From positions 52,697 to 116,696 of the IMG/VR virus record IMGVR_UViG_3300048091_000193: a DNA stretch of 64,000 nt; one strand, written 5' to 3'. The DNA comes from a virus (Duplodnaviria > Heunggongvirae > Uroviricota > Caudoviricetes). Shown piece by piece: positions 5,554 through 61,301 of the stretch. The notes below the pieces were generated by a model. It was given only the letters and a program-made list of their open reading frames with translations. It ran no database searches and had not been told where the DNA came from. Position 1 is the first letter of the stretch. The number at the start of each line of letters is the position of its first letter. Made by a program: the position numbers and the translations under genes.

Positions 5554-6903
5554 ATGTCGGATACTGCAGAAGCAGAGGTCGTCGAGGGCGGCTATGAGTT
5601 CGACGACACCTTCCAGCGCAAGATCGCTGCGTTGGCGTTGCGCGATACCGTGTTTGCCCAGCGCACCGAAGGCCTGATCGAGCCGTCGTTCTTCGAGAAC
5701 GACGTCGATCGCGCCATTATCAACGTGGCGCAGGATTATTACACCAAATACAAGACGACGCCGGACAAGGGCACGATCCCGACCCTGATGAAGGACGCCC
5801 TGGCGGCGAAGAAGATCCGCAAGGAGATGTGGCCTGATCTGCGCACGCGGCTCGGCGCGCTCCTGGCGCAACCCATGTCGGATCGCGACTACGTCATCAC
5901 CAAGGTCGCCGATTTCGCCAAAAACCGAGCGATGCAGAACGCTATCATGGCGTCGGTCAATTTGCTCGACAAGGGTGACTATGTCGGCATCGAGCAGCTG
6001 ATCCGGCAGGCCGTCAATGTCGGCATCTCCGACGACGCCAGTGCATACGACTATTTCGGCGAGCTCGCATCGCGCACGGCACATCGTAATGCGCTCGCGA
6101 CCGGTCTGATCAAGCCCGACGGCATCACGACCGGCTTTGCCGAGATGGACAAGCATCTGTTCCACAACGGCTGGGGCCGCAAGGAACTGACGGCCTTCCT
6201 TGCCCGCGCCAAATTCGGCAAGTCGATGGCGCTGGGTGACTTCGGCAAGAACGCATTTCTGGCCGGCTACAACGTCCTGATCTGCTCGTGCGAAGTGTCC
6301 GCGCGCATCTATGCCGACCGTCTCGACGCCAACTTCTCCGAAACGGCGATGATGGTGCTCAAGGATAAGGCGATCGATGTTGAGGCCAAGGTTTGGGCAG
6401 CGACACAGAACGCGATCAAGAGCGGCGCTCAATTCAAGATCCACGACTTCGCGGCCGGCACGCTCAAGCCCTCGATGCTGCGCCGGCTGCTGGAGAAATA
6501 TCGCGGCCAAGGCATCATCTTCGACCTGATCATCACCGACTATGCCGACATTATGTGCCCGGAGCGGATGACGAGTGATCCGATCGAGAACTCCAAGAGT
6601 GTCTGGATCGACCTGCGCGCGATCGCCTACGAACAGAATGCAGCCTGTCTGACGGCCACGCAGACCAATCGTGACGGCGCCAAGGCCGCAACAGCGAAGG
6701 CCACAGACGTTGCGGAAGACTTCAACAAGATCCGCATCGCTGACCTTGTGATCTCAGGCAACGCGACCGAGGCTGAAATCTCGGCCGGCGAGGCGCGCAT
6801 CCACTTCGCGGCCTCACGTAACCAGGCCGAGGTGATGCTGCGGATCGCCCAGAAGCGCGATCAGATGAAGTTTTTCACCAAGATCCTCGGGGTCACAAAA
6901 TGA
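5554..6903 (+). CDS. dnaB: DnaB-family replicative DNA helicase
   Basis: C-terminal RecA-like domain with Walker A-like GKSMALGDF and helicase motifs (IIFDLIITDYADIM Walker B-like); 449 aa. Confidence 0.75.
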   Translation: MSDTAEAEVVEGGYEFDDTFQRKIAALALRDTVFAQRTEGLIEPSFFENDVDRAIINVAQDYYTKYKTTPDKGTIPTLMKDALAAKKIRKEMWPDLRTRLGALLAQPMSDRDYVITKVADFAKNRAMQNAIMASVNLLDKGDYVGIEQLIRQAVNVGISDDASAYDYFGELASRTAHRNALATGLIKPDGITTGFAEMDKHLFHNGWGRKELTAFLARAKFGKSMALGDFGKNAFLAGYNVLICSCEVSARIYADRLDANFSETAMMVLKDKAIDVEAKVWAATQNAIKSGAQFKIHDFAAGTLKPSMLRRLLEKYRGQGIIFDLIITDYADIMCPERMTSDPIENSKSVWIDLRAIAYEQNAACLTATQTNRDGAKAATAKATDVAEDFNKIRIADLVISGNATEAEISAGEARIHFAASRNQAEVMLRIAQKRDQMKFFTKILGVTK

Positions 6904-8014: not shown

Positions 8015-8055
8015 AGTCAGTTTTGACTTACAAACCTCGACGAACTCGCTATATT
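8015..8055 (+). promoter_or_regulatory. Class I promoter-operator, type A: palindrome AGTCAG-tttt-GACT(8015-8028) overlapping -35 TTACAA(8028-8033), 16 nt, -10 TATATT(8050-8055)
   Basis: Read from sequence; the 5' UTR that follows (gagcagcgcacac...aaagggg) is conserved with those at 17862-17899 and 60985-61016. Confidence 0.55.
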
Positions 8056-12303: not shown

Positions 12304-13473
12304 TCAGTCCGGAGCGCCTCGCTTTCGGATCAAGGTCATCATTTCATATCGCAGATTCATGCGGCCGTCGGCGACCATGCGCACCACGGACCGGAGATAG
12401 CCGCCCGGATTGCGGATCTTCGGCGTCGAGGAATTGGCGTCGTTCTCGTAGAGCTGCAAGACCAGGCAGACAGCGGCCGCGGCCTTTAGGGGCCCGATCT
12501 TCTCGCTCGCCTCAGACCAGACCGTCGGCGAAGCCCCGAGGGTCGATCGCAGCACCCGCGCCGCCGCGACCAGATCCACCTCGCTTCGCGGCGTCTCGAC
12601 GTATTCGAGGATCGCAGGGCAGGCTTCCACTGTCAGCTCCACGGGGACAATGTCGTATGGAAGGGAAGGACTTTCTCCAAGCTCAGCTTCCCCGGAAGCC
12701 TCTTGTTCCAAATCTCGGTTAAGCGATTCTGAGGGTTTTGTTTCAATGAGGCTGCACCTCTTGCCCCCAGAGGCGGCTGAATAGAAGGTTTCTTCAGCTA
12801 AGGATCTCAGGCGACGCCAGCGATCGGTAACGCGCTCCAGCGCCCGCTCATCGTGCGACAGATTGCGACGGGGCGTTTCAGCGACCAACGATTCAAATGC
12901 GTCAGCGACGCGCACAGCGTCGGCTTGCGGGTAGCGCTGGGCGAGGGTGGTCAGAACGTCTTGCGCGGCCCGCCGGCAGATTGTGATCTCGTCGAACAAG
13001 CGCGACCTGGCGTTACGTGCAATGTCCTGTTCCCGGATCTCCTCGACCCACTCGCCGCGGCGATCGTAGACCGGCGTCAGATCGAACCCGAAGACATCGA
13101 CGATCTCGCCGCCTCGATTCTTGACCGAATAGCGCTTGCCGTTGGCGCTGTCTTTGGGCGCGATCAGCTGGAGATCGATTAGGCTGCGGATCCCATAACG
13201 CACCGCGCGCACCGACAGACCTGTTCGCCGGCACAGATATTCGTTCGATGGCCAGACCAGGACCTTGCCGGCGATCATCTTCTCACCCCAGCAGCCGATC
13301 AGCTCGCCGAGCAACTGCCGGCAGGCCGGGCGCAGCAACAGCGCCTTCATGGCGTCTCTGCCGGCCGCGGCCAGTTCCTTACGTGATACGGCGCGTTCAT
13401 CGCTGACGCGATGTCGCCTTGCCTCCAAGGCAGCCGTCGTCGGCCGCCTGGAGCCACTTAGCTCCAACTGCAT
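12304..13473 (-). CDS. repC: RepC-type replication initiator (repABC plasmid family)
   Basis: VLVWPSNEYLCRRTGLSVRAVRYGIRSLIDLQLIAPKDSANGKRYSVK matches the RepC N-terminal winged-helix signature (vFPSN..L..R..G.s..TLRRhl..L...GLI.RrDSpNGKRY); C-terminal NPGGYLRSVVRMVADGRMNL matches the RepC C-terminal sPGGYLR motif. AT-richer central linker (~12660-12810) sits where repC origins usually lie. Confidence 0.8.
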   Translation of the reverse strand: MQLELSGSRRPTTAALEARRHRVSDERAVSRKELAAAGRDAMKALLLRPACRQLLGELIGCWGEKMIAGKVLVWPSNEYLCRRTGLSVRAVRYGIRSLIDLQLIAPKDSANGKRYSVKNRGGEIVDVFGFDLTPVYDRRGEWVEEIREQDIARNARSRLFDEITICRRAAQDVLTTLAQRYPQADAVRVADAFESLVAETPRRNLSHDERALERVTDRWRRLRSLAEETFYSAASGGKRCSLIETKPSESLNRDLEQEASGEAELGESPSLPYDIVPVELTVEACPAILEYVETPRSEVDLVAAARVLRSTLGASPTVWSEASEKIGPLKAAAAVCLVLQLYENDANSSTPKIRNPGGYLRSVVRMVADGRMNLRYEMMTLIRKRGAPD

Positions 13474-13640: not shown

Positions 13641-13853
13641 CTAAGTTCCTGATTTAACTGAAAATTCCTTTTCCAAGGCAGACGCGATAGCACTCTGACG
13701 CGACGCATACTTTCCTTCGGCGACAGCCTGTGCGATCGCTTCGCGAATCACTACAGGGATCCACACGTTCGTCTCCGTCATGCCGCTACTGCGGCGTTTC
13801 TGGCGAAGGCGATCAACTCGAGCGGCGTTCTTCTGGTCTGTCGTCATCGGCAT
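13641..13853 (-). CDS. Ribbon-helix-helix (Arc/CopG/ParG-type) DNA-binding protein
   Basis: 70 aa; beta-strand VWIPVVI followed by two helices REAIAQAVAEGK and SRQSAIASALEKEF, a typical RHH layout; directly upstream (minus strand) of repC. Confidence 0.55.
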   Translation of the reverse strand: MPMTTDQKNAARVDRLRQKRRSSGMTETNVWIPVVIREAIAQAVAEGKYASRQSAIASALEKEFSVKSGT

Positions 13854-13859
13854 TCCTGA

Positions 13860-14300
13860 ACTCGTAACGTTCCGAGTAATGTCCGATTCTGGGTGATTTG
13901 CCTAGCGGTCTCAAGTCAAGATTGAAGACCAGGTAGAGGACCGCCGAGGGCTTCCCGAGATAGCTATCATACGAAGTGAAAAGTATCCGCTGACAACCCT
14001 AACGATTGATTCGCCTGCTTTGGAGGCTAAACTTGGATTCGCATAACATACATTATGGAATATCCACGCTCCATTTCTACCGTTAAGCCTATGGCGGGCA
14101 ACGATTTTCTAAGTTCTTTGGAACAAAACTCAAGTATAGCGGTTGACAACAGACGCGGAAACAGTTCATTTTTGCACTGTCAGAACTAACTTATACCGCT
14201 CAGATTTCCAGTCGGAAGCCTACGTCGTCCCTTTCTCGCTCTGCTATATACAACTTATCGAAGCAGACAGTCGCTCATAAACCGAGCGGAGAAAGGATTA
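13860..14300. other. AT-rich non-coding region between divergent RHH and XRE genes; candidate regulatory or origin region
   Basis: Lower GC than flanks. Contains TTGACA-like hexamer, degenerate class I half-site tgtcagaactaactta (14178-14193), gattcgc repeats and a ctatatac -10-like box at ~14246. Confidence 0.4.
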
Positions 14301-14310
14301 GGAGCGATTA

Positions 14311-19136: not shown

Positions 19137-19787
19137 ATGACAGAACTCCGCATCGAACAGCACTTGGGGCTGATGAAGAAGTTCTCCTTTCAGGTCATGC
19201 GCCGGCTTCAAGCCGCCGGCTCAAAGACGACCCTGATGGACGACATCATGCAAGAATGCGCCGAAGCCTGGTGTAAGGCGCGTGACAAATGGGATCCCGA
19301 AGCCGGCGTCCCGTTCGTCGCCTATTTCAAGAAGGGCATGGTTGATCACGTCAACCGCTTCGTCGGCAAGGAGATCTTCCACTACAACGGGTCCCATTTC
19401 GAGCTGGACGCGGAGCTCTCTGAAGACGGTGACTCCGCAGGTCACGAGCTGGTGGCGGACCACGCAGCCGGCACGCCCGAAGACGCCATCGTGGAGTCCG
19501 ATCGTCGCGCTAAGGCCCTTGCTCGGCTCTCCCCGCGCGCGCGCCAGTTCATCGAACTGTGCGAAAGCCCGCCGAAGTGCCTGGTCGACACCGTCAATGC
19601 GCTGCGCGAGCGCCGCGAATATGCCCTCGCCCGCAAGCTGCCGGCGATCCCGGTGCCCAAGCGCGTGCTGCCGAGCCTGATCTTCCGGTTCATGGGCGCC
19701 ACGCGGACTGAGCAGACCGGCATCACGCGGGAGCTCGAACAGAAATTCAACATCAAAGCCAACCTCGCGGAAATGGATCGAGTTTAA
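19137..19787 (+). CDS. Putative sigma-70 family (ECF-like) sigma factor
   Basis: Region-2-like MDDIMQECAEAWCKARDKWDPEAGVPFVAYFKKGMVDHVNRF (cf. AEDLVQETFLKAW...FDP...FSTWLYRIARN...R); region-4-like LSPRARQFIELCESPP. Similarity judged by eye only. Confidence 0.45.
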   Translation: MTELRIEQHLGLMKKFSFQVMRRLQAAGSKTTLMDDIMQECAEAWCKARDKWDPEAGVPFVAYFKKGMVDHVNRFVGKEIFHYNGSHFELDAELSEDGDSAGHELVADHAAGTPEDAIVESDRRAKALARLSPRARQFIELCESPPKCLVDTVNALRERREYALARKLPAIPVPKRVLPSLIFRFMGATRTEQTGITRELEQKFNIKANLAEMDRV

Positions 19788-25998: not shown

Positions 25999-26077
25999 GG
26001 CGCGTCAGTAACTTAGAAAGTTACGTCAATCCTCGATCGTCTCGCTATATTAGATTAGCGAAATCGCTAAATAGCGA
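25999..26077 (+). promoter_or_regulatory. Promoter with class II operator: palindrome GTAACTT-aga-AAGTTAC, -35 CGTCAA, -10 TATATT(26046-26051), then AGCGAAATCGCTAAATAGCGAAAT (26057-26077)
   Basis: Read from sequence; same -35/-10 frame as class I promoters but with the TCGCTAAATAGCGA-type palindrome in the operator position; upstream of the SSB gene. Confidence 0.5.
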
Positions 26078-26132: not shown

Positions 26133-27221
26133 ATGGCCCTCTCTCCCGAACTGTTGAAGCTCGTCAAGAGCTCCAAAAATAAGCACACTCGCACCGGCAA
26201 CTCGGTCTCCCTGAAGGAAGGCAAGACCACCATCCGCATCCTCGCAAAGGGCGCCGATCAGTTCTGGTTCGATTTCGCCGTCCACTGGATCAAGACCGAG
26301 AAGAACGGCAAGCCCGTCGCTGTCGTCGGCTGTAAGGACGAAGTTTTCGGCGAACCCTGCGCAATCTGCACTGCCATCGCCCAGGCGACCGCTCAGGCAA
26401 CCGACCAGGACGAGATCGATCTGATCAAGGAATGGAAGGCGAAGAAGGGCGTTCTCGTGAATGCGCTCGTTCGTTCCGGCCCCGACAAGTCGGAGTCCCC
26501 GCAGATCGTCGAACTGAAGCCGACCGTGTGGGCTGAGATCGCCGGCATGATTGCCGAATACCAGGAGTCCGATGTCGACCTGCTCGATGCCCTGAAGGGT
26601 CAGGACTTCATCATCGAACGTCGCGGCAAGAACCTCGACACCAAATACAGCGTCATGCTGGCTCCGAAGTCTGCTCCGGTTCCTGCCGAAGCTTTCGACG
26701 CCATGCACGACCTGAAGGCCTATGTCGAAGCGCAGTATTTCCGCGGCGACGAGACCAAGGCTCTGACTGCGATCGCCAACGTCACCGGCGTTTCGGTCAG
26801 CGTGGGTAACCAGATCGCCGCTCCGCGTCGCTCTGCCATGCTGAGTGCTCCGGCTGCGACTGTGGTCGATGCCGAAGTCGCAGCCGCTGTCGAGGCTGAA
26901 CTCGCCGCCGAAGACGAGGTGATCGAGGCCGTCGTCGAGGAAGTGGTCGAAGTCGTGGCCGAAGCGGTCGAGACCGACGAGGAGCGTGACCGCCGCGAGT
27001 TCCGCGAGTTCAAGGCGATGCAGGCGGCGAAGGCCGCAGCTGTGAAGCCTGCTCCTGCAGCTGCTGCCCCGGTCGCTCGCGCCAAGCCGGTTGCTGCTCC
27101 GGTCAAGCCGAAGCCCACTGCTGTCGCCGCTCCTGCGACGGTGCCGGCTGATGACTTCGACGGCGCTCTGCCCGCTGATGAAATCGACGCGCTGCTCGGT
27201 GAGCTGGACGTCGTGAAGTAA
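26133..27221 (+). CDS. T4 gp32-like single-stranded DNA-binding protein
   Basis: H-x16-C-x8-C-x2-C (HWIKTEKNGKPVAVVGCKDEVFGEPCAIC) matches the gp32 zinc-binding arrangement; acidic/Ala-rich C-terminal tail. Start at internal ATG 26133 (ORF track begins at 25983 inside the promoter). Confidence 0.65.
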   Translation: MALSPELLKLVKSSKNKHTRTGNSVSLKEGKTTIRILAKGADQFWFDFAVHWIKTEKNGKPVAVVGCKDEVFGEPCAICTAIAQATAQATDQDEIDLIKEWKAKKGVLVNALVRSGPDKSESPQIVELKPTVWAEIAGMIAEYQESDVDLLDALKGQDFIIERRGKNLDTKYSVMLAPKSAPVPAEAFDAMHDLKAYVEAQYFRGDETKALTAIANVTGVSVSVGNQIAAPRRSAMLSAPAATVVDAEVAAAVEAELAAEDEVIEAVVEEVVEVVAEAVETDEERDRREFREFKAMQAAKAAAVKPAPAAAAPVARAKPVAAPVKPKPTAVAAPATVPADDFDGALPADEIDALLGELDVVK

Positions 27222-52503: not shown

Positions 52504-52727
52504 CCAAGACAATGATCGCTGGTCTGAGGGAGTGCGCTGATTGGGGCGCAAGTGGATCTGATTACGGCATGCACACGGCTTGGAAGCCCAAAACGATGGA
52601 GAAGCTGCACCAGCTCGGTCTCGTGATGAAGGTTGAAAAGTGCCGATCCGCTGCCGGCTTTCGCTTCACTGGTTGGCGTCTCACCGAAAAGGGCGAAACC
52701 ACTCTCAAGGGAGAAATCCAATGCTGA
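52497..52727 (+). CDS. Small hypothetical protein (76 aa)
   Basis: Internal ATG of ORF-track entry 52308..52727; the upstream part of that entry is out-of-character sequence. Confidence 0.35.
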   Translation: MLTKTMIAGLRECADWGASGSDYGMHTAWKPKTMEKLHQLGLVMKVEKCRSAAGFRFTGWRLTEKGETTLKGEIQC

Positions 52728-57232: not shown

Positions 57233-57486
57233 TGGGCGAGATTTCAGACTATCGCCGCGGTTTTGAGGCTGGGCAACGCAAGGCTTGGGCTCAGCAACGC
57301 AAGGAGAACGGCCGCATCATGATCGAGGAGCACTTTACCCTGGTAAAGAGTGACAATCGATCCGCCGGCGGCTCGCAGAACCATTACATCGCCGATGACT
57401 TTGATTTTTCCATCAACATGATCTCGATGAACAAGATCGAGGGTAAAAAGCCGCCGAAGCGGATCACAGTGCAGGTGTTCCGATGA
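57232..57486 (+). CDS. Small hypothetical protein (84 aa)
   Basis: ATGA-coupled. Confidence 0.35.
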   Translation: MGEISDYRRGFEAGQRKAWAQQRKENGRIMIEEHFTLVKSDNRSAGGSQNHYIADDFDFSINMISMNKIEGKKPPKRITVQVFR

Positions 57487-57734
57487 GCCGCACCTTCCTT
57501 TCACCGACCGGCGCCAGGATCAAAGGCACCGTTGAAAGCCTGCCGGCCTGCGCACCGATCTCCGATATCGACGAACACGGTATCCCGATCCATTCCGGCG
57601 CCGACGCCGAGCTGTTCTGGGACGCCATGCAGACCCAAGTCGACTCCTCGACCGACAAAGTTCTCTACATGGACGAGAACGGCGAGGAATGGACGTTCGA
57701 CAAGCTGACGGTGGCGCCGGAGGATGACCAATGA
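57483..57734 (+). CDS. Small hypothetical protein (83 aa)
   Basis: ATGA-coupled. Confidence 0.35.
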   Translation: MSRTFLSPTGARIKGTVESLPACAPISDIDEHGIPIHSGADAELFWDAMQTQVDSSTDKVLYMDENGEEWTFDKLTVAPEDDQ

Positions 57735-57886
57735 CGTCGATCGAGGAAATCAAGAAGTGGCTCGATGCTCTCCTGCCCGGTAGCCAGGTCGCCATCCACG
57801 ACGACGGCTTGCAGCTGATCGAGGTTCATGACGGTCACCCCACGGGCGCCTGGCTCGAGATCGGCGGAGTGCCCGATGAAGATTGA
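57731..57886 (+). CDS. Small hypothetical protein (51 aa)
   Basis: ATGA-coupled; below ORF-track cut-off. Confidence 0.3.
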   Translation: MTSIEEIKKWLDALLPGSQVAIHDDGLQLIEVHDGHPTGAWLEIGGVPDED

Positions 57887-58127
57887 TCGGGACCCCCTCA
57901 TTACGGTGACTGCCGCCCTCGCCGCGGCCATTTCGCTCCTTGAGCGCACGCCGAAGACCAAGAAGGCCGCTGCCTCGGACAAGATGTTCGACCAGATGCT
58001 TCAGGATTACCGCAAGGCGCTCGAAATCGGTCGCGAGGCGCTGAAAGCGCCCAAGGCTCGAGACCCGCGGAACCTGTGCTCGCCGGCCTGCGCTGACGGC
58101 GGCATCGGCTGTCAGTGTGAACCATGA
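57876..58127 (+). CDS. Small hypothetical protein (83 aa)
   Basis: Internal ATG of ORF-track entry 57828..58127. Confidence 0.35.
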   Translation: MKIDRDPLITVTAALAAAISLLERTPKTKKAAASDKMFDQMLQDYRKALEIGREALKAPKARDPRNLCSPACADGGIGCQCEP

Positions 58128-58248
58128 AAATGGCCATCCATCACCTCGACGGCGTGAAGCGCCGGCCGGACCCGTTGATCACCTGCCCGAAGTGCGGCCC
58201 CGTTTCACGTGAAACGATTTCGCCTATTAGCGAAGACGCTAAATAGCG

Positions 58249-58476
58249 ATGCCGCTACGGCGCGAAAGGACGATCATGCGAAATAGCGAAATGACGTTCG
58301 AGGAGAAGCTGACGCTTTACCTCCTGGCCGACCGTGACCAGCAAGACGATGACACCAAGGCCGACCGGGTCCTAATCAACACGGGTCTGGCGGAGCGCTA
58401 CGACCCAGGCATGATGCGGATCACGCCCGCCGGCACTGCGGCGCTCATGGCCTTTCGCCACGAAATCGCTAAATAA
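58249..58476 (+). CDS. Small putative winged-helix DNA-binding protein (paralogue 1)
   Basis: LTLYLLADRD...VLINTGLAERYDPGMMRITPAGTAALMAF is similar by eye to LHALALLTIDLG...LIFLGMIEKSSNGFALTQRGREIVQSL of the next gene; start codon abuts a class II site. Confidence 0.4.
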   Translation: MPLRRERTIMRNSEMTFEEKLTLYLLADRDQQDDDTKADRVLINTGLAERYDPGMMRITPAGTAALMAFRHEIAK

Positions 58477-58490
58477 CGAAAGGGCGAAAT

Positions 58491-58706
58491 ATGGTCACCA
58501 TCACCGATGCGGTGCGCGGCACCCACGTAATGACCCATCTCCATGCACTGGCCCTCCTGACGATCGATCTCGGCTATCCCTACATTCGGGAAAAAGACGC
58601 TTTAGCCCTGATTTTCCTCGGAATGATCGAAAAATCGAGCAACGGGTTCGCTCTGACACAGCGCGGGCGCGAAATCGTGCAATCGCTAAAGAGCGATGAC
58701 GCTTAA
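58491..58706 (+). CDS. Small putative winged-helix DNA-binding protein (paralogue 2)
   Basis: Tandem paralogue of 58249..58476; a class II site (58682-58697) lies in its 3' coding end. Confidence 0.4.
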   Translation: MVTITDAVRGTHVMTHLHALALLTIDLGYPYIREKDALALIFLGMIEKSSNGFALTQRGREIVQSLKSDDA

Positions 58707-58980
58707 AAACGATCTGGGGCGCGCAGCGCGCGTCACTCGTGCATTCGCTCTTTAACGATAGAGCGATGCAGCTATTTAGCGAAAGCGCGTCAGTGACGTT
58801 CTAAAGCGATCCCGTTAAATCGCTAATTCGTCTTTTCGCTTGTCGACCGCCCGGACGCAGGTCTAGTTTTAGCGAATGACAGGGAATGCGATATCGCTTG
58901 AAATGTATTTCGCTAAATCGCGGCGACTGCGGCTCGAATTGTCAAATCGGCCATTCGTTGACGGCCTGCCGATCAGCACC

Positions 58981-59634
58981 TCAACCCGCAAAGTCTGCAT
59001 CTATCAGCGATCGCGGCGCGGCCAGTCCGGCGTGATCGACATTGAATTTGCTCACATTTTGGCCATCTGGGAGCTCAATCGCGGAATCTGCATTTGGCGA
59101 AAGGGCGATATCGTTAAATAGCGATTGAGCGACAAGAGCCTTGGCGAGTTGAACCAAGATGTCGTGACCCCAATCCCCCTTGGCCATATTGTAGCACCAT
59201 ACCACCACCTGACAGTTCGCTTTCGTATAGCCTATCCCAGGCTCGCGTTGGTCCAGGGATGGCACGAAGGGGCTATTTGGCTCGAAAACAAACGACATAT
59301 TGGTCACCGAGCACGTTCCGCGGGCCAATTTCTGCTCGATCCAACCCTGGTCAAGATCAAATGGAACGTTGATGATAGCGGCTCTCTTGCGCGCGCTGTT
59401 CCACAGCCTCGACGCCCAAGCGCTCCGATCGACCCGAAGACGCTCCAAGGATCGCTCAACCGCCCTCTCGTAATATCGGCGCTTCCGGTCTGCCGGCGAG
59501 AGATCCAAGAAACTGCGCTTCGACCGAGTATCCCGACATTGCCGACACCTGTCGAAAAGCCGGCCAGTCGGCGCAAGATCGTATTGATCGCTAGGCTTAG
59601 ATTTGGCGCAGGACCGACAGACTTTAATTCGCAT
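58981..59634 (-). CDS. HNH homing endonuclease
   Basis: Cys-rich N-terminus (CRSCAKSK...CRQC) and HNH motif YTKANCQVVVWCYNMAKGDW. Confidence 0.6.
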   Translation of the reverse strand: MRIKVCRSCAKSKPSDQYDLAPTGRLFDRCRQCRDTRSKRSFLDLSPADRKRRYYERAVERSLERLRVDRSAWASRLWNSARKRAAIINVPFDLDQGWIEQKLARGTCSVTNMSFVFEPNSPFVPSLDQREPGIGYTKANCQVVVWCYNMAKGDWGHDILVQLAKALVAQSLFNDIALSPNADSAIELPDGQNVSKFNVDHAGLAAPRSLIDADFAG

Positions 59635-59754
59635 AATCGTTATATAGCTAAATCGCTAAAGAACGACGACGAAAAGATTTCGCCTAATAACGAAAAAGCG
59701 AGATCGCTATAGAACGATCCCGCTCTTTAGTGACATCGCTAAATCGCGAAGTCG

Positions 59755-60450
59755 TTATGCGGCAAGGCTAACTGGACCCGTTGGGTTCGGCACGGTCAAC
59801 GATCGGGCGCCGGTCGGCGGGGCAGGGGGCTTTGGCTCGCTCAGGTATCGACGCAGCCGCAGGGAGTTCCGGATCGCCCAAGGCATCACCAGCGCCGTGG
59901 TCAGATAGAACGCGGCACAGATCGCCTCGATCTTGTCGGGAAGCGTTAAGCTCCAAGTTGGGAAGACATCGAGCAGGTTGTGAAAGATGGGCGACAGAAC
60001 CGCCAGCAACAGGGCAGGGCGGGTGCCGAAGACCATCGCCGCGCCCATGACGCCGAAGGCATAGAACAGAGCTCCGCCGTGAGGCACGAAGACGGATAAA
60101 ATAGTGGAGAGGGGAACGGTAACCAGAAGCGTCGCCAGAGTATAGAACAGGGCGGCGTTATTGGTCGGCACCGGCGGATCAGTCTCCGACGGGTAGGTTT
60201 CCAGGTCCTGACCGGCAATCGGGTAAACGTTGCTGGAGTAGCCATCCTGGGCCGATTCAGGCCAGGCGTCGGCGCCAAACATCAGGACTTCGCCGGCGAC
60301 ATCGTCGAGTGCCGCGCTCATCTGGCACAGGGCCAGGTGGTCGAAGGATTCGAGACCAATGTTCTTTGCGAATTGGGCTGCCGTTGAGACGAAAAGCTCC
60401 GAGAGGTCATGCTTCATGCCCTCGAAATCAGACGCCGAGTGGAACGACAT
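59755..60450 (-). CDS. Hypothetical membrane protein (acidic N-terminal domain, 4-5 TM helices)
   Basis: Protein-like composition unlike shadow ORFs; hydrophobic helices LATLLVTVPLSTILSVFV, ALFYAFGVMGAAMVF, ICAAFYLTTALVMPWAI; no competing + strand gene. Confidence 0.45.
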   Translation of the reverse strand: MSFHSASDFEGMKHDLSELFVSTAAQFAKNIGLESFDHLALCQMSAALDDVAGEVLMFGADAWPESAQDGYSSNVYPIAGQDLETYPSETDPPVPTNNAALFYTLATLLVTVPLSTILSVFVPHGGALFYAFGVMGAAMVFGTRPALLLAVLSPIFHNLLDVFPTWSLTLPDKIEAICAAFYLTTALVMPWAIRNSLRLRRYLSEPKPPAPPTGARSLTVPNPTGPVSLAA

Positions 60451-60771
60451 AATAGTGGTTTCCTTTGCTGCTGACCGTCAACCACGACGGAGACTACCTA
60501 CGTTGAGGTGGTCACAGGTTCTCTTTCTGTTCTCTTGTCGTCAAGTAGGAAACATATCCGAATTGGGATTTATTTTCCGGCGGTCGGTGACGATTTAGCG
60601 AAATCGTGCTATCGTTCTTTCAGGCCGACCCTATTGCCTTACAACCCGCCCAAATGTTGCGCAACGTGGAACTGTGTCAGAATTGACTTATTTCCAAGGC
60701 ATCCGGCATTCGGGCAACAGTTTGTTCATCCTTTTCTGTTCATCGGCGATTGATACTTGAAGGAATACCCA

Positions 60772-61016: not shown

Positions 61017-61301
61017 GTGATTACACTGCCAAGCCTTCTGACCCTGGAGAACGTCACTGCCGCACCAATCGAAGCGGGTGACGCCGGCATCATCCTGAAA
61101 GCCGACGGGTCTTTTCGTGTCTTCAACTGCCACGAGGGGCTTAATCCTGACAACGTGACCGAGGCCCAGAAAGACCAGGCCCGTAAAATGATGGCGTTTG
61201 CTGTCGCACTGCAGGTGCCGGCCGTCATGGAGATCCTTTACGATTTCGCCCGCAACCCGGACATCGTCGGTTCGCTGTTTGATCGAGGTCAGTTCAATTG
61301 A
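61017..61301 (+). CDS. Hypothetical protein (94 aa), GTG start
   Basis: AAAGGA RBS 6 nt before GTG. Confidence 0.4.
   Translation: MITLPSLLTLENVTAAPIEAGDAGIILKADGSFRVFNCHEGLNPDNVTEAQKDQARKMMAFAVALQVPAVMEILYDFARNPDIVGSLFDRGQFN

Follow-up and report, generated by a model that had tools for sequence, protein, structure and literature searches.

The 64,000 nucleotides analyzed here, referred to as the window and numbered from their first letter, are positions 52,697 to 116,696 of the IMG/VR record IMGVR_UViG_3300048091_000193, a virus of the class Caudoviricetes. At 58.1–60.7 kb the window contains an island of short repeated boxes, set among a series of small genes and around two minus-strand genes specifying an endonuclease and a membrane protein; a further group of boxes is found at the promoter of the gene for a gp32-like single-stranded DNA-binding protein (SSB). 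The island probably consists of dense arrays of boxes, phased at 8 bp, for the ParG-like partition protein of a Rhizobium phage-plasmid, with the SSB promoter carrying boxes for the same protein.

Box arrays and genes of the island

The initial annotation had singled out this region for at least 13 copies of a palindrome. With the 14-mer TCGCTAAATAGCGA, 11 matches were found in the window at ≤2 mismatches against 0.35 expected, a number reached in none of 100 shuffles. Ten of these lie at 58236–59749 and the other at 26064, in the SSB promoter. At ≤3 mismatches there were 33 matches (5.1 expected), giving 18 distinct positions in the island, in agreement with the copy number first reported. 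K-mer enrichment revealed TCGCTAAA and its complement eight times in the island and three times in the remaining 61 kb.

The spacing of the repeats was analyzed by scoring the hexamer TCGCTA/TAGCGA at ≤1 mismatch and taking all pairwise distances within the island. Box-to-box distances of 8 bp occurred 16 times, of 16 bp 13 times, of 24 and 32 bp six times each and of 40 bp five times, other distances being essentially nil; the same distance analysis revealed no 8-bp periodicity of boxes in the window outside the island. Chaining at 8-bp steps gave six arrays with at least three good boxes (26056, 58212, 58745, 59095, 59629 and 59680, the last with 10 units), and no such array was obtained in 19 of 20 dinucleotide shuffles. 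A looser scan added arrays at 58466, 58683, 58804 and 60588. Of the 45 phased units in the scored arrays, 42 belong to the island, and the looser scan brings the island total to roughly 50. Arrays contain 3–10 boxes, both orientations occur within single arrays, and the position frequencies show a conserved core T-C-G-(C/T)-T followed by an A/T-rich spacer. The unit that repeats, strictly every 8 bp, is the box TCGYT(A) or its complement, with 2–3 AT-rich spacer bases, and the palindrome is a by-product. The feature is real and strongly non-random.

A scan of the island for promoter and terminator consensus sequences gave background levels only, and the island has no DNA match in PLSDB. Several unrelated small open reading frames (ORFs) end, as read from the sequence, in GCT AAA TAG or TAA; these -AK termini arise because the boxes hold TAA/TAG in two frames and so terminate ORFs that enter the arrays.

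The island has a GC content of 54–57% as against ~60%. Its contents are given here from left to right, the palindrome and the arrays being listed without strand, together with equivalents in L002, an 11-kb contig whose p71 is 88% identical to that of the window. The perfect 16-bp palindrome of the initial annotation, CGTTTCACGTGAAACG, is present as a single copy in the window (58201–58216) and abuts array 1. Its core is CACGTG, it also occurs in L002 at 5955–5970, and it lies within the 3' end of a small CxxC ORF having a 42-nt indel between the window and L002. Array 1 (58212–58289) has 10 phased units, six of them good, and covers the stop codon of a 40-aa ORF and the start of p75 (58249–58476, +; alternative start 58276), a small ORF with no family match. 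Array 2 (58466–58487), of three units, extends over the p75 stop codon and the ribosome-binding region of p71 (58491–58706, +), a small ORF with a weak, sub-threshold winged-helix match, and array 3 (58683–58712; four units) is situated at the p71 stop codon. Arrays 4 and 5 (58745–58782 and 58804–58841; five units each) occupy the non-coding gap upstream of p81 (58876–59121, +), a small gene overlooked in the initial annotation and 36% identical to a 73-aa gene of L002 (E=6e-14). At its stop codon lies array 6 (59095–59132; five units), the left edge of the endonuclease insertion.

The two minus-strand genes were identified essentially as first annotated. The product of the first (58981–59634, −; 217 aa) is an endonuclease VII/HNH-type free-standing nuclease (phrog_3322, 7e-24; phrog_1035, 8e-19) with tblastn matches to annotated phage HNH/endonuclease genes and no Pfam match; the homology is limited to approximately residues 1–170, and the tail of the ORF is antisense to p81. 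The second (59755–60450, −; 231 aa) specifies a multi-pass membrane protein of the DUF4118 family (Pfam 1.3e-7, above cutoff). Between them is the largest box block, with five units at 59629–59666 and 10 at 59680–59757, or ~15 boxes, which fills the whole 120-bp gap from the endonuclease start to the DUF4118 stop; its equivalent in L002 is a 13-unit array. A final array of four units (60588–60617) lies in a divergent intergenic region. The nearest supported minus-strand genes beyond the island are that for RepC (12304–13473) and a small gene at 13641–13853, which is consistent with the statement of the initial annotation that the two are alone on the opposite strand in a stretch of >40 kb.

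The DUF4118 protein, whose gene adjoins the largest block, is a stand-alone form with a soluble N-terminal domain of ~100 aa, and it has only three relatives among 5.8 billion proteins. The homolog on contig L013 was set aside as a useful relative, its context being bacterial and unrelated. No close relatives of p71, p75 or the DUF4118 protein were found in IMG/VR.

Boxes at the SSB promoter and at parA-parG in the phage-plasmid family

The window is part of a member of the RHEph10/pLM21S1 family of ~116-kb RepC plasmid-prophages (phage-plasmids) of the Rhizobiaceae. Its 0–57.7 kb are colinear with 23.9–84.9 kb of RHEph10, the RepC homolog included, and its DnaE is 57–58% identical to those of Rhizobium phages RHEph10, B1VFA and RHph_N1_10. 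PHROG matches were obtained to a DNA transfer protein, PhoH, DnaB, primase, ligase, CobT/CobS-like proteins, DnaE, the gp32-like SSB, exonuclease, UvsX, SbcCD, RNR, ThyX and rIIA/B. The homolog of RepC-type replication initiators (12304–13473, −) is 34% identical to RHEph10 gp039 and, together with a neighbouring 70-aa ORF (13641–13853, −), marks the element as a plasmid-prophage. In the literature, pLM21S1 and RHEph10 are described as the archetypes of a class of plasmid-like prophages that replicate by RepC and possess a partition module (PMC4447125; PMC7969092). Complete family plasmids of 115–119 kb are present in Shinella, Methylobacterium, Pararhizobium, Sinorhizobium (pLM21S1) and Rhizobium (pRlX6), and ParG homologs of the RHEph10-family type occur on ~116-kb contigs in several rhizobial assemblies.

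The 70-aa ORF, situated just upstream of RepC, is by eye CopG-type ribbon-helix-helix-like (cf. RHEph10 gp040). Its product was considered as the binder of the boxes and rejected since there are none near its own gene. The intergenic region after it (13854–14310; 51% GC) contains no TCGCTA-type boxes.

In the SSB promoter (26043–26077, +) the −10 element CGCTATAT (26043–26050) is followed, after 5 nt, by the three-box array TAGCGAaaTCGCTAaaTAGCGA at 26056–26077, where the initial annotation had also placed a copy of the palindrome; the SSB ATG is at 26133. Nine CGCTATAT promoters, all on the plus strand, are found in the window (8047, 24441, 26043, 31265, 36645, 41519, 43186, 50069 and 60969), the frame in most being (G)CAAACC, ~10 nt and then CGCTATAT. 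In seven of the other eight the −10 element is closely followed by an AAGTCA(N5)TGACTTA palindrome; at 8047 the palindrome lies upstream of the −10 element instead, and 60969 has a partial AGTCAC only. At SSB the box array stands in place of this palindrome, which upholds the proposal of a second, protein-type operator class replacing AGTCA-N-TGACT at exactly one CGCTATAT promoter. The AAGTCA(N5)TGACTTA palindrome could itself be bound as an operator by a different regulator, or else form a hairpin in the 5' RNA. A homolog of phage sigma factors is encoded at 19137–19787. The notion that the boxes are variant −10 elements (GCTAAAT versus GCTATAT) was rejected, none having the upstream GCAAACC of the nine promoters.

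A scan of IMG/VR for TAGCGANNTCGCTANNTAGCGA returned 10 contigs, and every match was the SSB promoter of a relative. The sites share CGCTATA(T/G), 5 nt, the three-box array and ~55–75 nt to the SSB start (M-LSPELLKLVK in nine of the 10), the array being invariant while the flanks diverge. In RHEph10 the site is TAGCGAttTAGCGAttTCGCTA, with one box flipped (<<> versus <>< in the window). The SSB box site is kept in every family member examined.

The family carries a type Ib partition module, in which ParA is paired with a small ParG-type protein of the ribbon-helix-helix class, the predicted centromere binder. A small Walker ParA (~210 aa) followed by a small ribbon-helix-helix gene was found in RHEph10, L019–L026 and L106–L126, and the pair is also present in Shinella, pRlX6, pLM21S1 and both Methylobacterium plasmids. 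All arrays of RHEph10 other than that at SSB are situated at 98–106.4 kb around the ParA-like gene, one of them ending at the parA start codon, and in every RHEph10-group relative a five-box array ends at the parA ATG. Across seven ParA loci of relatives, arrays recur at about −1210, −3230, +950, +2016, +3315, +4740 and +5110, with the same syntenic arrays in L106, L116 and L126. An array lies directly upstream of parA in every relative examined, and arrays are also found 3' of the small gene after parA. Direct-repeat-only arrays exist in relatives (<<<, <<<<>, >>>>).

In RHEph10 (102–112 kb) and L106–L126 the par module is embedded in a conserved block comprising genes for a DEAD-box helicase, two ParB_N-domain proteins, an ABC-ATPase-like protein and Tad2-like and Acb2/Tad1-like anti-defence proteins, followed by the terminase; box arrays are also located inside or beside several genes of this block.

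The gene right after parA specifies a protein of 82–102 aa ending ...LNFKVDPEFHTRFKMTATAAGLSMKELLEQCFDAW, which profile comparison and modeling indicate to be ParG-like and of the ribbon-helix-helix class. Against Pfam, the family protein matched RHH_10 at 5e-5 (23.9 bits, cutoff 27) and ParG (PF09274) at 3e-4 (21.2 bits, cutoff 21.4); two of 12 family members also matched Omega_Repress (E=0.015). Its profile gave ParG (1p94; E=0.0099) as the best PDB match. The AlphaFold2 (AF2) model of the family protein shows two helices, predicted with confidence, behind a disordered N-terminal tail, and the top Foldseek match was again ParG 1p94 (probability 0.99 but E=0.12), followed by ribbon-helix-helix proteins of the CopG, Arc and PutA type.

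The association of the boxes with this protein was examined in two sets of loci. A metagenome scan with a ParA alignment gave 80 mostly unrelated type Ib loci among the matches listed, of which the 69 with a small downstream ORF were used as the control set; a locus was counted if the 200 bp preceding parA contained at least three T[CA]G[CT][TG]A boxes in phase. Such boxes were found in 15 of 23 loci with an [LMI]NFKV strand and in none of the 46 without it (Fisher p=9e-10). The second set comprised 37 independent bacterial genome loci found by the NFKV pattern. Here array density was 0.39 per kb within −1300 to +400 of parG versus 0.006 elsewhere (~65-fold), and 20 of the 37 carry an array, as a rule immediately before parA and immediately beyond the 3' end of parG.

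The type of box also changes with the protein. In pRlX6 and pLM21S1, where the strand is MTFNM, all three sites (the SSB promoter, the leader of parA and the 3' end of parG) have TAGCTA boxes. TAGCGA is the box of the NFKV elements (pAMS5a and the RHEph10 group), the Methylobacterium plasmid pAMS5a (LNFKV) having AGCGA boxes at both SSB and parA. At the level of sequence, box type associates and co-varies with the ParG-like recognition strand. No other evidence speaks as strongly for binding of the ParG-like protein to the SSB operator, as well as to its own, as this concerted change of the strand and of unlinked sites.

The (L/M/I)NFKV ParG-like subfamily is widespread (L026–L105, L127–L163), on elements of 36–63% GC, its hosts including Alphaproteobacteria, Gammaproteobacteria, Chromatium, Desulfovibrionaceae, Acidobacteria, Cyanobacteria and others. 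Its loci keep TCGCTA/TAACGA boxes with an 8-bp period upstream of parA and 3' of parG. No description of this box was found in the literature searched.

Comparison with the relative L002

L002 is 91–93% identical to the window in conserved flanking blocks (57479–57892 and the p71 gene), and within the island region all differences between the two are bounded by box copies. In place of p75, L002 has an unrelated Cys-rich ORF between the same box copies, and its p71 homolog contains a 122-nt insertion between two direct copies of CAATCGCTAAAGAGCGA (array 3). The endonuclease gene is absent from L002 and so is an insertion in the window. The 99-aa ORF at 57828–58127 is likewise missing. The suggestion of a mobile HNH cassette in the initial annotation holds for the endonuclease gene itself, though not as an explanation of the motif.

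The 99-aa ORF (phrog_29865) shows 79% DNA identity to a gene of the non-syntenic Rhizobium phage RHph_I4, the sole phage with a DNA-level match to the window, with which it has a single small gene in common. This likeness, and the absence of the ORF from an otherwise 93% identical L002, make it look like a recently exchanged cassette.

The boxes themselves persist, with L002 arrays of 6, 6, 5, 5 and 13 units. All 30 box positions of array 1 are identical in L002; in arrays 4 and 5 the figures are 64 of 71 for box positions and 84 of 105 for other positions. The box at 60593 has been flipped by a double substitution, reading TAGCGA in the window and TCGCTA in L002. Judged from these sequences, the island is hyperplastic, and it is at the near-identical boxes that cassettes have been replaced, inserted or deleted between close relatives.

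Interpretation and known systems

Several observations weigh against the reading of the island as arrays for the ParG-like protein. No ParA/ParG-like ORF was found in the 64-kb window or in L002 by tblastn or six-frame profile search, and since there is no parA-parG within the window the binder is deduced from family synteny. A homolog of the window's 94-aa gene (61017–61301) lies ~20 kb upstream of parAG in the Shinella plasmid, a gene order from which the par locus is expected beyond the window end; this phage's own parA-parG presumably lies outside the window. The array-rich zone of RHEph10 is at 98–106 kb, and the island corresponds to ~85–88 kb of that genome; this difference in position makes the island a lineage-specific expansion whose role is not fixed by the comparison. 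Between the window and L002 the boxes are only modestly better kept than neighbouring non-coding bases (88% versus 80%). Lastly, the boxes of Shinella (MSFKV) and M. oryzae (LSFKL) are mixed or weak, so that the recognition code is not clean.

The initial annotation had attributed the palindromes to p75 and p71, taken to be twin winged-helix paralogs, and dimers of one or both would on that account bind the 14-bp palindromes and govern a private regulon of the island and SSB. Boxes do surround both genes, as they do around autoregulated regulators, and p71 has a sub-threshold match to HTH_45 (E=0.002; 18.4 bits, cutoff 25.5) and a faint MotA-like PHROG match. The two proteins are however not detectably related, BLASTP giving no alignment at E≤100, and p75 is without any family match; the AF2 model of p71 (pLDDT, the predicted local distance difference test, 54; all-helical) is too low in confidence to judge a winged helix. 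Moreover, p75 is swapped in L002 while the boxes stay, p71 has only two homologs among 5.8 billion proteins, and boxes and SSB operator are family-wide in a family lacking both genes, RHEph10 carrying the same boxes with no homolog of either. The strict 8-bp phasing, the direct arrays and the box flips are as expected if each box takes one ribbon-helix-helix dimer, and not if each palindrome takes a winged-helix dimer; box type, moreover, tracks the ParG-like strand. The proteins p75 and p71 are probably not the binders, and the regulon so conceived is very unlikely. A role of the boxes in RNA, as UCGCU-loop-AGCGA hairpins for processing, stability or translational control, is scarcely credible: inverted pairs can form 5-bp stems and sites do fall at gene junctions and where the SSB transcript begins, but many arrays are direct repeats unable to pair, the SSB site has a different order of orientations in RHEph10 and in the window, and unrelated plasmid-like loci have these boxes ahead of their parA promoters. 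No Rfam family gave a match.

Among the other possibilities raised initially, a centromere-like array comes closest to the evidence, and an iteron array does not stand. The region is repeat-dense and of lower GC, as might suit a replication origin with iterons for an initiator, yet iterons are 17–22 bp long, at about helical-repeat spacing and beside the initiator gene, whereas here 5–6-bp units recur every 8 bp, RepC and its upstream region are 45 kb away with no such boxes, and in >35 unrelated loci the same boxes flank parAG and not rep genes; we hardly entertain this reading either. It is somewhat less improbable, though still unlikely, that binding by the ParG-like protein is confined to parA and SSB, the island boxes being mainly passive repeats that spread by recombination, mark cassette boundaries in a hyperplastic region and play no part in regulation or as a centromere. 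The replacement of p75, the 122-nt insertion, the endonuclease insertion and the 99-aa ORF indel are all bounded by box copies, as this would have it. On the other hand, phasing is kept over arrays of 10–13 boxes in both the window and L002, box positions are somewhat better conserved than their surroundings, and the box altered by double substitution was flipped and not lost. None of these four explanations accounts at once for the phasing, the freedom of orientation, the co-variation and the occurrence of the boxes with parAG in unrelated loci.

Binding of the boxes by the ParG-like protein is thus the preferred reading, predicted from sequence. By analogy with ParG of TP228 and omega of pSM19035, one dimer would occupy each box and neighbouring dimers would coat the array cooperatively. 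Because the arrays share the architecture of those two systems, short ones (3–5 boxes) over a transcription start or ribosome-binding region are read as putative operators, as at the SSB promoter, the island gene junctions and the parA leader in relatives, and the ~15-box block at 59629–59757, which would be large enough to recruit ParA, as the best candidate for a centromere. The same analogy suggests that adjacent genes may be repressed and that arrays may have centromere activity. Cassette turnover would be a side effect of the repeated boxes. A more far-reaching proposal, which we advance only tentatively, is that the ParG-like protein has been recruited as a genome-wide regulator, its arrays having multiplied in this lineage into a 2.5-kb island of roughly 50 boxes. 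The island would then combine three functions: it would be a centromere, it would silence accessory cassettes (membrane protein, nuclease and small ORFs) while the element is a plasmid, and it would be the recombination substrate by which these cassettes are swapped. If so, the change of the strand from N/K to T/N with that of the box from TAGCGA to TAGCTA would constitute a readable ribbon-helix-helix code.

Of most interest in this system is its conserved connection with the SSB promoter. How phage-plasmids coordinate maintenance with the phage programme is poorly understood, and putative partition-protein sites on the SSB promoter, kept across genera and co-evolving with the protein, offer a testable link between segregation and phage DNA metabolism. 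A predicted cognate box (TCGYT, 8-bp period) is provided for the widespread, uncharacterised NFKV ParG-like subfamily, and MTFNM with TAGCTA would be a natural specificity switch, useful for ribbon-helix-helix recognition rules and design. For annotation, palindrome-rich islands in such genomes are not to be credited to the nearest small ORFs.

In the plasmid-prophage N15, the centromere sites of SopB/ParB are scattered through the genome near phage gene promoters, as here; its ParB is however a large helix-turn-helix protein (type Ia) and the sites are single inverted repeats, not ribbon-helix-helix box arrays. The PeSL cassettes of T4-type phages resemble the island in that short repeated regulatory elements flank small ORFs at gene-shuffling boundaries of a hyperplastic region, but these are promoter and hairpin units, whereas the island has protein-binding box arrays, as we read them, without promoter consensus.

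Closer parallels are found among plasmid partition systems. ParG of TP228 binds ACTC boxes with 4-bp AT-rich spacers, direct and inverted, at one dimer per box; the eight-box OF array doubles as parFG operator and centromere, the chief centromere being the 12-box parH, and efficient centromere activity requires at least eight boxes (PMC3130281). Common to ParF-ParG and the present system are the 8-bp period, the AT-rich spacers and both orientations; the relatives of the window also share with it an array, here a putative operator, directly upstream of the ATPase gene and, as the next gene, one for a small protein whose N-terminal tail is disordered and precedes a ribbon-helix-helix domain. 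The box differs (TCGYT/ARCGA versus ACTC), as does the strand (LNFKV versus VNVNF in ParG), the likeness to ParG in sequence is marginal, the element concerned is a phage-plasmid of 116 kb, and the arrays are dispersed over gene junctions and a distant replication-gene promoter in place of one parH-OF block. Omega of pSM19035 recognizes 7–10 contiguous heptads in either orientation, at six sites overlapping the copS, delta and omega promoters (PMC3074150). Its heptads are 7 bp long and unspaced (WATCACW) as against 8-bp units here, the plasmid is Gram-positive and the sequence similarity faint. In the omega system, as is predicted here, a ribbon-helix-helix protein binds short contiguous repeats in either orientation at one dimer per repeat, and dispersed arrays serve as parS and as operators outside the par operon, copy-number control included (PMC3074150).

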